Origin: Candidatus Heimdallarchaeota archaeon
Lineage (GTDB): Archaea; Asgardarchaeota; Heimdallarchaeia; Heimdallarchaeales; Heimdallarchaeaceae
Reading direction: 5' to 3'
NCBI GenBank assembly: GCA_019057815.1
Contig: JAHLWR010000001.1
Location: 96,001-160,000 of the forward strand
Length of the DNA stretch: 64,000 bases
Shown one piece after another: positions 55,185 to 58,841 of the stretch. A program made the translations under genes and the position numbers. Each line of letters starts with the position of its first letter. The first letter of the stretch is position 1. The notes below the pieces were generated by a model that had not been told where the DNA came from, did not search any database, and saw only the letters and a program-made list of their open reading frames with translations.

Positions 55185-56321
55185 ATGATTCCTGTTGTAG
55201 ATGTTAATATTAGAGAAAAAGAAGTTGAAGCAGTTATTGAAGTTGTAAAAAGCCGTTACTTAGCTGAAGGGAAATTTGCTCGAGCTTTTGAGGAGAAATT
55301 TTCAGAATTTACTGGGGCAAAACATGTTGTAACAGCTGTAAACGGAACATGTTCATTACATATGGCTATTACAGCTTTAGATATAGGTCCCAAGGATGAG
55401 GTAATAACAACCCCTTTTACATTTATTGCGTCCTCAAATGTTATTTTCTTTAATGGTGCAATACCAATTTTTGCAGACATTAATCCTGAAACGTACAATA
55501 TTGATCCTGAAAAACTTGAAGAAAAAATTACTAACAAAACAAAAGCTATAATGCCTGTACACATTTTTGGTAACCCTTGTGATATGAAAGCTATAAAAGA
55601 TATAGCAGAAGATTATGACCTTAAAATTATAGAAGATTGTGCTCAAGCTCATGACGCTAAAATTGATGGAAAACATATGGGGAATTTTGGAGATTTGGGA
55701 TGTTTTTCGTTTTATGGTACAAAAAATTTAGTATCTGGTGAAGGTGGAGCAGTTATCTGTAATGATGAAACCATTTATGAAAAATTGAAAAGTATTAAAA
55801 ATCATGGTCGAAACCCAGTGGGAGGGTATTCGCATTACCGTATTGGCTACAATTATCGTATAACAGATATGGCTGCTGCTATTCTTTGTGTTCAAATAGA
55901 TAGAGCTAATGAGATATTGTCTAGAAGACATAGGAACGGTAAGATCTACAGGAATCTTCTCGGTGAAATTGAGAATTTACGTATACAAAAAATCTTACCA
56001 GGACATCAACACTCCGATTACATAATGGCGCCAGTACTCCTTAATGAAAAAAGGAAACCAAAAGAAGTCATTGAATATCTTAAATCAAAGGGTGTCAGTT
56101 CAAGAACTATATATGAAACCTTATCCTACGAACAAGACTGCTACAAGGATTTGTCTACTTGGCATATGTCACGAGTTATCAATTATCCTGATTATAGTAA
56201 GGTTTCTTGTCCCAATTCTGAATACACTGCCCGTAACCATTTTGAAATTCCTATGGTTTCTACTTTAACCGATGAAAAAATTCAATACATATCTCAAACA
56301 CTTAGAGAATTTTTGAAATAA
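55185..56321 (+). CDS. DegT/DnrJ/EryC1/StrS PLP aminotransferase
   Basis: NGT, IMPVHIFG, IEDCAQAH, FSFYGTKNL, GEGG, GYNYR. Confidence 0.93.
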   Translation: MIPVVDVNIREKEVEAVIEVVKSRYLAEGKFARAFEEKFSEFTGAKHVVTAVNGTCSLHMAITALDIGPKDEVITTPFTFIASSNVIFFNGAIPIFADINPETYNIDPEKLEEKITNKTKAIMPVHIFGNPCDMKAIKDIAEDYDLKIIEDCAQAHDAKIDGKHMGNFGDLGCFSFYGTKNLVSGEGGAVICNDETIYEKLKSIKNHGRNPVGGYSHYRIGYNYRITDMAAAILCVQIDRANEILSRRHRNGKIYRNLLGEIENLRIQKILPGHQHSDYIMAPVLLNEKRKPKEVIEYLKSKGVSSRTIYETLSYEQDCYKDLSTWHMSRVINYPDYSKVSCPNSEYTARNHFEIPMVSTLTDEKIQYISQTLREFLK

Positions 56322-56337
56322 CCTAAAATTATTTCAA

Positions 56338-56541
56338 ATGGGCAACTATTGGTCATGTTGGTCAGAGAGAGGTTCTTATGCTATTGATGGTTCAGCTGGT
56401 GCTGTTGACATATACCCACTTGATGAATATTTTAAACATTCTACAGATGAAACTCAAATATTTTTCACATCTACTCTACTAATGGTAGTAGTTTCTTTGC
56501 TACTCACAAGGATTATCTCAAAAAAAGCAAAGAAAAAATAG
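56338..56541 (+). other. Short ORF, probably the C-terminal anchor fragment of a surface protein
   Basis: Ends in a hydrophobic helix plus KKAKKK; no signal peptide; sits at the island border. Confidence 0.35.
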
Positions 56542-56836
56542 AACAGTTGTTAGAACCAATAGCAGTTAAAAGAATAAGTGCAGTTTCTGAAACCATTTTT
56601 ATCAATAAAATACTAGGAGAAACAAGAATATGAACTTTGTTATTTTTTTACATCACATTAAACACTACTAGCCAGTTTTAAGATTCAAATGATTTCGTAC
56701 TGTCATCATAAACAATAAGATGGAATATTCACAAACTTTCTTCATATTATCCTTTGGGAGAAATTTTAAACCTGTAAATATATTAAATAAGATCTAATAA
56801 TATGAGAATAGTCTGTATAGGGAAGAAAATCAATAA

Positions 56837-56890
56837 TGGAGTTAGTCTTGTCATGAATTGGTGATTCAGACAGTGAAGAAACTAACTCCA
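56837..56890. repeat. Nested inverted repeat / hairpin at the left edge of the skewed unit
   Basis: TGGAGTTAGT...ACTAACTCCA (perfect 10 bp) enclosing TGTC-A-TGAAT-tggtg-ATTCA-GACA. Confidence 0.8.
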
Positions 56891-57038
56891 AGAGAGAAGT
56901 AGACTAGAGGGTTAATAAGAATTAGCTAAAAAGAAAAAAGGGTTAATATAAAGAATTTATTACTTTCAATGGTCTATGGACGGTTTTGACACTAAAAGTT
57001 TAAGTGTACATAAGTATATGTTAACATGGTGATTCAAA

Positions 57039-57458
57039 GTGACAGTAGAGGAGTATCAAGAAGAAAGAAACAAGAAAGAAAGTAAGAAACTAAAAGGAAA
57101 ACCCTCATTTGCTATTTTATGGGTAAGTTACATACACAAGAGAGTAGAAGAAGAAATAGATTATATGATGAACCCATATGGAAGAACAGAAGTAAGAACA
57201 CAAACTTATGAGCGCAAAAGAGAGAGTATAAGAGGGATAAAGGAACTAGCAGAGAAATATATAGAATATATGCAAGAGGTAGAAAGAAACCCAGAAAGAT
57301 ATTCGAGCATATTTGACGAGTGGGAGAGTTTCAGAGTAAGGATAGTAGACCAAGAGGAAGAAGAGATAGAGATAAATCAGGAGATAATAGCAGAGAAAGC
57401 TGTAGAACATATAGAGATACAAGAGATAATAGAATTAGAAGAGGAGGGAGAAAGATGA
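57039..57458 (+). CDS. Hypothetical E-rich protein (mobile-element-like)
   Basis: GGTGAT SD then GTG; ATGA overlap with next gene. Confidence 0.7.
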   Translation: MTVEEYQEERNKKESKKLKGKPSFAILWVSYIHKRVEEEIDYMMNPYGRTEVRTQTYERKRESIRGIKELAEKYIEYMQEVERNPERYSSIFDEWESFRVRIVDQEEEEIEINQEIIAEKAVEHIEIQEIIELEEEGER

Positions 57459-57742
57459 GTTACGAAGAAATAGAAGAGATATGTGATGAGCTAAAAGTAG
57501 ATTCAATACCATTTTACAATGCGATAGAAATCAAAGGAAAAACAGTGATACTAGACAGAGAAAGACTAGAAGAAGAAATAGAAGCAAAAAAAGGAATGAC
57601 ATATGAAGAATTCAGAGAGTCAGAACATACAATAATGAACAATTCAGAAGAAGAGATAGAAAAGACAATAGACAAGTTAAGAAGCTATTACAAGGAAAAT
57701 CTTATCATTTTCATCAAGAAGAACACCAGAAGGGGGGAGTGA
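57455..57742 (+). CDS. Hypothetical protein (95 aa, MSYEEIEEIC...)
   Basis: ATG 57455 overlaps previous TGA, GGAGG SD; the longer track ORF start is likely spurious. Confidence 0.7.
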   Translation: MSYEEIEEICDELKVDSIPFYNAIEIKGKTVILDRERLEEEIEAKKGMTYEEFRESEHTIMNNSEEEIEKTIDKLRSYYKENLIIFIKKNTRRGE

Positions 57743-57743
57743 A

Positions 57744-58697
57744 GTGATAAGAGAGAAAGAAGAATACAAAAAGATACCAATAAGATTGAAGGGGACGAAC
57801 AAGACAACAAAAGCAAATCACAAGGGGAAGGAATGGGGAAGGAAACAGATACAAAAAGGAGGGAATTGTATGGATACAGTAAGAGGGTGTCCAGCGTATG
57901 AAGACCAAGAATATCCAAGATGTAGGTGGGATTGCTACTCGGAGGAAGCAGTGAGAAGATACAAGAAGATATTCGGAAAACCAGTAAAAATGATATTGAA
58001 AGAAGAGCTATTGAGAAAGGATCTGAAAAAGTGTAAAGAGAGATGGATAAGGATAGGAGTAGACGGAGCACCAAGCTGGGATTGGGAACTAACAACAAGA
58101 TGTGCGGAAATAGTAGCAGAGAAGGGAAAGACACCGGTAATAATAACAAGGATGTGGAAAAGACCAACAGAAAGACAAATAGAGAGAATGATAAGAAAAG
58201 AGACGATAATAAACATAACAGTGTCAGCAGTAGATGAAAAAGAGGAATTAATAGAAAGGATAAAGCTAGCAGAAGAATATCAAGAGAAAGGGGGGAAAGT
58301 AGCTTTAAGAGTAGTGACATTTGCGTTCAAAGAAAAAGATGAAAGATGGGAGAAACAAGGAGAATTGATGAGAGGGAAAATACCAACATTGGAACAACCA
58401 GCAAGAATATTGAGAAAGACAGAGAAAACAAGAAGAAAAAATTCAATGTGGGAAGAAGTAGAAAGGGAAAGGTATAAACCATACCAAAGTTATATGACGG
58501 GAAAAAAGAATGCGAGATGGAGAACAGCAGGGAAATTATACGAAGGAAAAGCATGCATATCAGCATGTCCAGAATGTGAAGTAAAATGTATGGTGGGAAT
58601 ATTCCAACAAGAGAAAAAACAAACCTTAGACTTCTTTTTGACGGAGCTAATCAGTGAATCACCAGAAGGAGAGATTTTGGGGAGTGTCAGTAGTTGA
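57744..58697 (+). CDS. Atypical radical-SAM-like Fe-S protein
   Basis: DTVRGC-x10-CRWDCY, IRIGVDGAPS, VIITR, INITVSAVD, LRV barrel-strand pattern; C-terminal CISACPECEVKC. Confidence 0.55.
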   Translation: MIREKEEYKKIPIRLKGTNKTTKANHKGKEWGRKQIQKGGNCMDTVRGCPAYEDQEYPRCRWDCYSEEAVRRYKKIFGKPVKMILKEELLRKDLKKCKERWIRIGVDGAPSWDWELTTRCAEIVAEKGKTPVIITRMWKRPTERQIERMIRKETIINITVSAVDEKEELIERIKLAEEYQEKGGKVALRVVTFAFKEKDERWEKQGELMRGKIPTLEQPARILRKTEKTRRKNSMWEEVERERYKPYQSYMTGKKNARWRTAGKLYEGKACISACPECEVKCMVGIFQQEKKQTLDFFLTELISESPEGEILGSVSS

Positions 58698-58717
58698 CAC
58701 TTCTCCTTCTCCTCAAA
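58677..58717. repeat. Hairpin over the stop codon at the right edge of the skewed unit
   Basis: AGTGTCA-gtagt-TGACACT core, extendable (tttgggg...cctcaaa; agaaggaga...tctccttct). Confidence 0.75.
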
Positions 58718-58841
58718 TGTGAAAGTATCCCTCTTTATATACTACATATAAGATTTATAAGTGAGAAAGAAAGTTCATTAAATCTTAGAGAGAAAGAATA
58801 AGAAGGAGAAAAAGTCTTAAACAGGAAAATTAACCATATTT

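Follow-up and report, generated by a model that had tools for sequence, protein, structure and literature searches.

A repeated three-gene module of Heimdallarchaeaceae with an extreme purine excess on its coding strand

The DNA analysed here, referred to as the window, is a stretch of 64,000 nt (C38:96001-160000) from G000, a 3.7 Mb Heimdall-group assembly (Candidatus Heimdallarchaeota archaeon, GCA_019057815.1) whose contigs are labelled by C and a number. It contains unit A, a repeated module composed of a leader, three open reading frames (ORF1 to ORF3), a terminator-like hairpin and a downstream promoter-like tract (Table 1). The three genes are tightly packed. The stop codon of ORF1 overlaps the start codon of ORF2 (ATGA, 57455-57458) behind GAGGAGGG, and the stop codon of ORF2 (57740-57742) lies 1 nt from the GTG start of ORF3 at 57744, behind AGGGGGGAG, both being GGAGG-type sites. 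The ATGA overlap, the TGA-N-GTG junction and these sites bear out an earlier reading of the same sequence (the first-pass annotation), in which the genes were held to be translationally coupled through strong Shine-Dalgarno sites. Unit A is set apart by an extreme purine excess on the sense strand of its genes and by its recurrence in differing surroundings.

Between positions 57000 and 58650 purines make up 72.7% of the + strand (A 47, G 26, T 17, C 10%), the maximum among all 1600-nt windows (mean 0.502, standard deviation 0.051), and GC skew and AT skew are both about +0.5. The bias is stronger still at synonymous positions: ORF1, ORF2 and ORF3 have purine proportions of 0.83, 0.90 and 0.97 at fourfold-degenerate sites (for ORF3, A.70, G.27, C.02 and T.01), against 0.29-0.59 in every other gene of the window and a genome-wide value of 0.476 (standard deviation 0.085; 2985 ORFs of G000). 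Because fourfold sites are 83-97% purine here and ordinary elsewhere, amino-acid composition is not the cause of the skew. Both the sliding-window composition and the fourfold-site counts thus agree with the first-pass annotation, which had described a + strand purine skew beyond that of the neighbouring genes. Its limits had been placed at about 57.0 and 58.65 kb; the skew is real but narrower, running from about 57040, at the start codon of ORF1, to about 58600, where it fades some 100 nt before the stop codon of ORF3. Within these limits purine reaches 73%, 4.5 standard deviations over the window mean, while the non-coding ends of the unit are 42-72% purine.

All codon positions are biased. 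Serine is encoded by AGY at a frequency of.62 and never by TCY, arginine by AGR at.99 and isoleucine by ATA at.91; Glu, Arg and Lys are increased about twofold, and Asp, Asn, His and Phe are reduced two- to threefold. These codon preferences and residue shifts indicate that the bias acts on total purine content and not on wobble choice. A decoding preference for purine-ending codons is ruled out by the enrichment of Ser AGY. Host codon bias for expression was likewise rejected, since purine at fourfold sites is 0.45-0.58 in the ribosomal-protein operon, 0.43 in EF-1alpha and 0.42 in EF-2.

A second copy of unit A lies at C24:13640-15578 on the minus strand, 91.5% identical over window positions 56835-58772 and with sharp boundaries. 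Altogether at least six copies occur in at least three assemblies, each with different surroundings: those on C38 and C24 of G000, one in the metagenome-assembled genome (MAG) 'Candidatus Heimdallarchaeota archaeon 8H_bin2', whose ORF3 is 94% identical, two in GCA_025960485 (L051 and L053), and those of an ENA metagenome (L052 and L050). L051 and L052 have positions 56832-58772 in common with C38, so that the same ends recur; 8H_bin2 matches 56767-58728 and L050 only 56832-57766, and the core common to all full copies is 56835-58726. The recurrent left end is 56832-56835, moved to 56766 in copies with an attached 68-bp remnant of another gene, and the recurrent right end is 58772. In L050 the leader, ORF1 and ORF2 are followed by a HEPN gene in place of ORF3, swapped exactly at the gene junction. 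The flanks of the copies, when compared, proved unrelated, with neither terminal inverted repeats nor target-site duplications. A fixed ORF1-ORF2-ORF3 trio could be discarded, as cassettes L027 and L030 have other upstream genes and L050 has ORF1 and ORF2 without ORF3. A 171-bp ORF3 fragment at C48:90913-91089, 89% identical and with one in-frame TGA, is a decayed third copy.

Copies in differing contexts and in several assemblies are those of a discrete mobile or exchangeable element and not of a syntenic core operon, as had been proposed at first pass, and the genome-wide check for copies and empty sites gave, besides the copy on C24, an empty site in the same-genus genome G001. The hairpins at 56837 and 58717 had been taken as the limits of the unit. 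The left one holds, as the unit starts at 56835, but on the right the repeated unit runs on to 58772. Three observations had been named in advance as fatal to the first-pass finding, namely a skew driven by amino-acid composition, orthologues that are syntenic core genes, and hairpins found nowhere else. None of them was made, and therefore the finding stands.

The copies also inform on how the composition is kept. Odd-one-out polarisation of three copies gave 33 purine-to-pyrimidine (R>Y) and 31 pyrimidine-to-purine (Y>R) changes, the rate per site of Y>R being 2.4 times that of R>Y. The equilibrium predicted from these changes is 70% purine and the observed content is 71-73%; the composition is at equilibrium, not decaying. 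At fourfold sites only 2 of the 21 differences between the two G000 copies are R<->Y, against 21 of 41 between host orthologues of G000 and G001 (Fisher P=0.0018, calculated on one unit pair because the three pairs are not independent), and 18 of those 21 differences are A<->G.

Unit A is not the sole carrier of the bias. About 14 islands of G000 exceed 67% purine on one strand, and those biased at synonymous sites are unit A, unit B (four loci), the gene of a 264-aa CxxC protein (two loci), Rce1-like genes, two cas1-cas2(-cas4) modules and a few others. The family B unit, of about 920 bp, encodes a 105-aa protein and a 155-aa membrane protein of no known family; its copies (C24:10686-11471, C39:116140-116925, C43:9607-10392, a partial one on C22, and L051:10334-11119) are 91-95% identical, show 91-100% purine at fourfold sites and lie repeatedly near unit A. 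The CxxC protein ('family C'; C34:5759-6553 and C43:268381-269175, 92% identical, 86-92% purine at fourfold sites) had no match in any of the profile libraries. In the cas modules (C18:27265-29248 and C20:463-1738) the coding strand is purine-loaded, the single genes having 0.66-0.95 purine at fourfold sites.

The bias belongs to the module and not to the locus. Copies of A and B have 0.94-0.98 each, the opposite-strand genes between the units 0.47-0.50, and the HEPN gene that replaces ORF3 in L050 has 0.59. A continuous strand-wide skewed patch at this locus was excluded, since the adjoining genes have a normal composition and hsdR alone is skewed within its operon. ORF3 cassettes of two other Heimdallarchaeaceae MAGs, standing beside normal housekeeping genes, reach 0.70-0.85, and virus-like contigs with more distant ORF3 homologues 0.34-0.54. 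As the distant homologues are unskewed and the cassettes of other Heimdallarchaeaceae intermediate, the bias arose in the gene pool of this lineage.

A mirror-image bias was found in hsdR (1070 aa, C38:163626-166838, about 3.6 kb past the window end; 0.15 purine at fourfold sites) and in a TFB paralogue (C48:177025-177996; 0.18). In both genes Arg CGY makes up 47-65%, the amino-acid composition is normal and the shift affects synonymous sites only; hsdM, hsdS and the PIN gene of the hsdR operon have a normal composition. An ORF next to a CRISPR array (cas6, C46:79296-80228) has 0.06 purine at fourfold sites; only its C-terminal 120 residues match Cas6, so its 5′ part could be antisense read-through of purine-rich DNA.

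Table 1. Unit A, its parts and the features on its flanks (window positions)
Feature	Position	Strand	Remarks
Last ~200 bp of DegT/aminotransferase gene; left copy of the direct repeat of the island	56138..56339	+	Second copy C38:211911-212113, 92% identical
Multi-copy repeat of ~200 bp with 67-aa ORF	56341..56559	+	~12 copies in G000, ~10 copies in G001, 72-81% identity
Decayed remnant of the 3′ end of the family B 155-aa gene	56766..56834	+	78-79% identical to B-unit 3′ ends on C24 and C43
Unit A, repeated module	56835..58772	+	~1.94 kb
Left boundary hairpin, one TGGTGATTCA in loop	56837..56890	.	DNA free energy -13 kcal/mol, z -4.86, 0/200 shuffles
Conserved non-coding leader	56891..57038	+	Nearly invariant among three copies
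ORF1, 139 aa, acidic, helical	57039..57458	+	Known family: none
ORF2, 95 aa, small alpha/beta domain	57455..57742	+	Known family: none
ORF3, 317 aa, predicted divergent radical-SAM-fold enzyme	57744..58697	+	Family alignments, AlphaFold2 model, structural neighbours
Inverted TGGTGATTCA in non-conserved C-terminal tail of ORF3	58655..58664	-	Complementary to the ribosome-binding-site copy at 57027
Right hairpin across ORF3 stop codon, then pyrimidine tract; terminator-like	58677..58717	.	7-bp perfect core stem, z -1.98, 10/200 shuffles
Promoter-like tract, TTTATATA box	58701..58804	+	93% identical to C35:8797-8900, upstream of an unrelated gene

The remnant of the family B gene that precedes unit A is common to C38, 8H_bin2 and L053. 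In 8H_bin2 its translation, YIKLGLINGNSLCREENQ followed by a stop and W, aligns with the C-terminus of the B protein, YIKLGLINEDSLCKEESKKW and stop. This remnant shows that the order B then A is an ancestral gene adjacency; on C24 and L051, too, unit B is a neighbour of unit A. In the alignment the left hairpin begins exactly at the position of the stop codon of the ancestral upstream B gene. The leader that follows contains an A/T-rich TATA-like box, TTAATATAAAG, at about 56941-56951 and an imperfect palindrome around TGACACT at 56988, which together suggest a putative promoter, and its GGTGA ribosome-binding site lies within the second TGGTGATTCA (57027-57036). The recurrence of both motifs had been noticed at first pass. 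TGGTGATTCA is indeed present at 56859, at 57027 and, inverted, at 58655; it occurs 26 times in the genome, three times in each of the two G000 unit copies, against 0.010 expected per unit (Poisson P=2e-7). TGACACT or its complement is enriched too, with four occurrences against 0.18 expected (P=4e-5).

Strong hairpins had been described at both ends, and this is true of the left one (z -4.9, 0/200), whereas the right one is only modest (z -2.0, 10/200). The latter is identical in three copies and would be terminator-like. A genome-wide search located the hairpins in the other copies of the unit and nowhere else. Predicted RNA folds of the leader and of the 3′ end were not significant (z -0.24 and -1.26). 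The promoter-like tract, carried by the C24 and L051 copies only as far as 58772, looks like a recombination joint.

The proteins encoded by ORF1, ORF2 and ORF3 had no match in Pfam, PADLOC, PHROGs or NCBIfam, and the PADLOC models had none in the fused ORF1-ORF2 protein either. This fusion is found in the C24 copy, through a 1-nt insertion (indel at 57439); in all other copies seen the two genes are split. ORF1 has close relatives only (79-86% identity), and its AlphaFold2 model has a predicted local distance difference test score (pLDDT) below 50. The ORF2 part is modelled with pLDDT 81-90, and its fold search gave only generic helical matches, none above Z 5; an atlas features search returned no usable match for ORF1 or ORF2. 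A distant ORF2 homologue, L027:9454-9708, is a separate purine-loaded ORF (E 2.5e-9). ORF1 and ORF2 are not constant partners of ORF3.

ORF3, the largest gene, belongs to a family of 16 clusters by word search and of 198 representative clusters by profile. It has the motif D-x2-R-G-C-x10-C-x3-C-Y plus a C-terminal C-x3-C-x2-C-x3-C cluster; D44, R47, G48, C49, C60, W62, C64 and Y65 are invariant in the family, and the C-terminal cysteine cluster is conserved. Its AlphaFold2 model (pLDDT 85.5, predicted template modelling score 0.84) has the partial (beta/alpha)6 TIM-barrel fold, and the structural neighbours are almost entirely radical SAM enzymes (Z 7-13.4). The closest is spore photoproduct lyase (SPL; 4fhc, Z 13.4, 230 residues, root-mean-square deviation 3.7, 10% identity), viperin reaches Z 12.1, and Foldseek agrees with the radical SAM fold at a weaker level.

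The sequence signature is less clear. The canonical CxxxCxxC is absent, and the conserved cysteines are C49-x10-C60-x3-C64 followed by Tyr, in alignments of 16 and 55 family members. Since a few radical SAM enzymes have non-canonical cysteine spacings, this lowers the case for membership of ORF3 but does not exclude it. ORF3 itself does not match PF04055; 7 of 55 distant relatives do so weakly (best E 1.3e-4), two match DUF5131 and two Fer4_12. Searching the family profiles against PDB chains gave no SPL or radical SAM chain at E<=10 and nothing relevant.

Among distant members of the family the fusion partners are an ATP-dependent DNA ligase domain, an amidohydrolase, a TauD dioxygenase and, as a weak match, a DNA methylase. 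On virus-like contigs the ORF3 homologue is adjacent to the genes of Pol III alpha and an Mre11-like phosphoesterase or has Dam and N6/N4 DNA methylases nearby, and in one MAG a relative lies among AlkZ, DNA_alkylation (DNA-alkylation-repair) and BglII genes. Fold, fusions and neighbours suggest that ORF3 is a DNA-directed radical enzyme acting in repair or modification. The two G000 copies of ORF3 differ at 13, 4 and 44 first, second and third codon positions, a pattern of purifying selection. A link of the unit to viruses or mobile elements had been inferred at first pass and agrees with the presence of the ORF3 family in virus contigs. L029 (a 70-kb contig of Logan SRR31655977), L046, L048 and L049 contain unidirectional arrays of small ORFan genes around ORF3 homologues, some with Dam-type methylases; they are probably uncharacterised viruses, and the purine bias is absent from these four.

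A strain-specific island of about 60 kb (59.6 kb; window 56340 to ~115910, C38:152340-211910) contains unit A, some 500 bp in from the left edge, a position deduced from the empty site in G001, where both island flanks are contiguous after the DegT gene, and from the duplicated 3′ end of that gene. The ORF of the multi-copy repeat between the DegT end and unit A resembles the C-terminal membrane-anchor end of a surface-protein gene, as gene-end debris would; the repeat may represent a 3′ end that the genes of a surface-protein family have in common, or else a recombination joint. Further into the island are an AlbA_2/Schlafen gene, a type I restriction operon (hsdR confirmed), tandem giant ORFs of 2071 and 4628 aa (C38:185845-205943), preceded by a 296-aa ORF (C38:184226-185116) that matches AAA_31, CbiA, ParA and MipZ, and, at the right end, an Rce1-like gene with a Zn-ribbon gene. 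No tRNA was found by scanning C38:149685-154334 and 160001-214000.

Defence-type neighbours accompany every copy: AlbA_2/Schlafen and hsdR on C38; Rce1-like, HEPN AbiV and AlbA_2 genes on C24; and HEPN RiboL-PSP (weak matches) in 8H_bin2 and L050. A 317-aa ORF 3′ of the C24 copy was considered as an ORF3 paralogue, given its equal length and KEEYK start, and proved to be an unrelated Rce1/CPBP-type protein. There is no integrase or transposase inside unit A, as stated at first pass, and PF00589 (tyrosine recombinase/integrase, XerA family) had no match in G000 and matches in all 14 control genomes; with G000 95% complete, its absence is unproven. G000 encodes Y1 transposases (two genes) and about 35 copies of TnpB, and the L053 copy of the unit has a TnpB gene at a distance of 2.3 kb.

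Taking into account that: (i) the skew is confined to the coding region; (ii) the composition is at equilibrium, and (iii) R<->Y changes are suppressed, ongoing sense-strand selection is favoured, and we hold, with moderate confidence, that unit A is a mobile accessory cassette under continuing nucleic-acid-level selection against sense-strand pyrimidines. Other explanations were weighed against it. That the unit is an ordinary host operon, skewed by charged Glu/Lys-rich proteins, is scarcely credible: its proteins are indeed rich in Glu, Lys and Arg, but 83-97% of its fourfold sites are purine, and it is multi-copy, non-syntenic and missing from its site in the same-genus genome. The richness in these residues, together with the dominance of AGR and ATA, recalls thermophile genes, which show purine loading, and the bias is foreign to the host genome; the unit could then be the compositional fossil of a transfer from a purine-loaded, Glu/Lys/Arg-rich organism or mobilome, for instance a hyperthermophile. 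However, we know of no genome with about 97% purine at fourfold sites, the bias is graded (0.70-0.98) at host-like G+C across separate Heimdallarchaeaceae assemblies, no amelioration is seen and the more distant homologues are unskewed, all of which make this origin quite improbable.

More weight attaches to the inference of the first-pass annotation, a fragment of a virus, plasmid or non-autonomous element. In its most explicit form the unit would be the relic of a virus or plasmid with a long-lived single-stranded DNA (ssDNA) stage or modified bases, and its purine excess an inherited strand-specific mutational signature. Discrete ends, subterminal hairpins without terminal inverted repeats or target-site duplications, ORF3 relatives on virus contigs, a bias at all codon positions, as a nucleotide-level process would leave, and mirror-image genes in the same genome, expected from a donor replicon with genes on both strands, agree with such an origin. 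Yet the skew is limited to coding DNA (42-72% purine in the non-coding parts, against 97% at fourfold sites), and in the mirror-image genes only synonymous sites deviate. Transitions cannot alter purine content, and so cannot yield a purine excess; damage to ssDNA through C deamination gives T-rich and not purine-rich strands. Moreover, the chromosomal copies, about 8% diverged, show no net drift to the composition of the host, few of their changes are R<->Y, neither a Rep/HUH nor a capsid or replication gene lies in or adjoining any copy, and the virus-borne ORF3 homologues are unskewed. We therefore consider an ssDNA-replicon relic unlikely, and less likely than sense-strand selection; what stands of the first-pass inference is the mobile module with an intrinsic composition and a virus-linked ORF3, and not the skew as a signature of ssDNA or base modification, the skew being coding-only, at equilibrium and poor in R<->Y changes. 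The same hairpins, precise recurring ends and lack of terminal repeats and duplications could also suggest a non-autonomous IS200/IS605-type element, similar to palindrome-associated transposable elements (PATEs), moved with its passenger genes as ssDNA by a resident Y1 transposase, and the Y1 and TnpB genes mentioned above supply the setting. But the left-end and right-end hairpins of the autonomous element are unrelated to those of the unit, with only chance 7-8-mers in common, and the unit hairpins exist nowhere outside its own copies; the left end is not preceded by a conserved target tetranucleotide, the right hairpin, besides being weak, lies 55 nt inside the end, and the variable junctions (56766 and 56832; 58728 and 58772; the sub-block ending at 57766) fit recombination better. 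Such an element is very improbable.

In the reading that we prefer, selection acting on the sense strand of a mobile cassette, unit A would be an accessory module, complete in itself, that belongs to the flexible gene pool of the defence islands of Heimdallarchaeaceae. Blocks or sub-blocks would be exchanged between loci and genomes, most likely through recombination at gene-end, terminator and promoter joints and not by a dedicated recombinase. Purifying selection would remove pyrimidines at every free position on the sense strand of the module, and be strong enough to impose Glu and Lys in place of Asp and Asn, and Ser AGY over TCN. The agent that we prefer would be selection on the transcript, which could mean a pyrimidine-poor, unstructured mRNA with few U-runs, able to escape pyrimidine-directed endoribonucleases or premature termination. 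An agent at the RNA level is favoured because in nearly all biased genes it is the coding strand that is rich in purines. The unit ORFs have 8.2% pyrimidine-pyrimidine dinucleotides, against 23.7% in host genes, and, relative to the latter, one quarter of the runs of five or more T and about half of the palindromes, and hence evasion of pyrimidine-directed RNases, avoidance of oligo-U termination, an unstructured mRNA and avoidance of restriction sites are all conceivable.

Several points weigh against this reading. The target of selection could be DNA and not RNA. Neither the leader nor the region of the 3′ hairpin is rich in purines, which is awkward if the pressure is purely at the RNA level, unless transcription largely leaves out the leader or other functions constrain both. 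The copies may owe their divergence to an unseen replicon that had a mutation spectrum of its own, and their insertion may be recent, which would mimic selection. A simple rule that purine-rich mRNA is advantageous fails for the mirror-image hsdR (0.15) and TFB paralogue (0.18). The defence-island context is an association, with no PADLOC match for the unit proteins; the function of ORF3 is deduced from fold, fusions and neighbours; and the host sample used for the neutral spectrum is small (41 differences).

A bolder proposal, which we put forward as a rather improbable one, is that Heimdallarchaeaceae possess a class of 'RNase-proof' genes, mobile cassettes with an accessory or defence role whose transcripts are selected to be almost pyrimidine-free at free sites. 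Its members would be unit A, the 105- plus 155-aa pair, the 264-aa CxxC protein and, less extremely, the Rce1-like genes and cas1-cas2-cas4 modules. If this were true, such transcripts would survive and be translated while pyrimidine-directed endoribonucleases, encoded by adjacent genes (HEPN, Schlafen/AlbA_2, PIN) or by an invader, destroy ordinary RNA.

Synonymous sites, usually treated as near-neutral, are held at 94-98% purine in mobile genes of the closest archaeal relatives of eukaryotes, and almost only A<->G changes are tolerated between copies, which amounts to a strong and unexplained constraint on nucleic-acid composition. The bias may report an RNA-level arms race, through nuclease evasion or termination control, or an unknown mode of replication of Asgard mobile elements. 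Members of this gene pool can, moreover, be sought in Asgard genomes by a simple compositional marker, their purine bias. The analysis also defines an uncharacterised virus-associated, radical-SAM-like family of 198 representative clusters, with non-canonical cysteines and DNA-related fusions and neighbours.

Among radical SAM enzymes (viperin, PFL-AE, QueE), the predicted fold of ORF3 is most like that of SPL, and its DNA-related fusions and neighbours parallel the DNA substrate of SPL; it differs by lacking the CxxxCxxC motif, a Pfam or NCBIfam match and a profile match to SPL chains. The island recalls the aloposons of Heimdallarchaeum, which have tandem giant genes of 3,000-6,000 aa, a MinD/ParA-like ATPase upstream and tRNA integration downstream (Wu et al. 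2022, PMC8813620; a paper with no mention of purine or radical SAM). Judged by gene size and layout, two of these three hallmarks are found wholly or in part, namely the tandem giants (2071 and 4628 aa) and, shortly before them, the ParA/MinD-like ATPase; however, one giant is below 3,000 aa, and the island adjoins the 3′ end of a protein gene (the duplicated DegT) and not a tRNA. The three-gene unit has not been described as part of an aloposon and occurs also away from giant genes. Four further sets of tandem giant ORFs (2,000-6,000 aa) were seen in G000 (C1:65237-79386, C7:18929-46876, C16:144872-172278 and C39:49372-77075), so aloposon-like elements may be numerous there.

Like IS200/IS605 PATEs and integron cassettes, unit A is associated with hairpins, is devoid of terminal inverted repeats and target-site duplications and carries passenger genes; it differs by its unrelated end hairpins, its variable junctions and the lack of a detected PF00589 recombinase in G000. 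Another parallel is offered by cassette exchange at duplicated gene-end, terminator or promoter DNA, as in rhs C-terminal displacement arrays: the DegT 3′ end and the B 3′ remnant act as similar brackets, a promoter tract is shared between unrelated genes and sub-blocks are swapped exactly at gene junctions. This model is silent on composition, to which purine loading adds an unexplained layer. That layer has its own precedent in Szybalski's transcription-direction rule and in the polypurine tracts of thermophile mRNAs, where the sense strand likewise has an excess of A and G that extends to third positions and amino-acid choice; for mobile elements of Asgard archaea, a literature search yielded no report of purine loading. 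Here, in contrast, the loading is restricted to a few mobile modules, ordinary and highly expressed genes being without it (genome mean 0.476), it is far more extreme in the unit, at 97% of fourfold sites, and it is accompanied by a few genes of the opposite bias.

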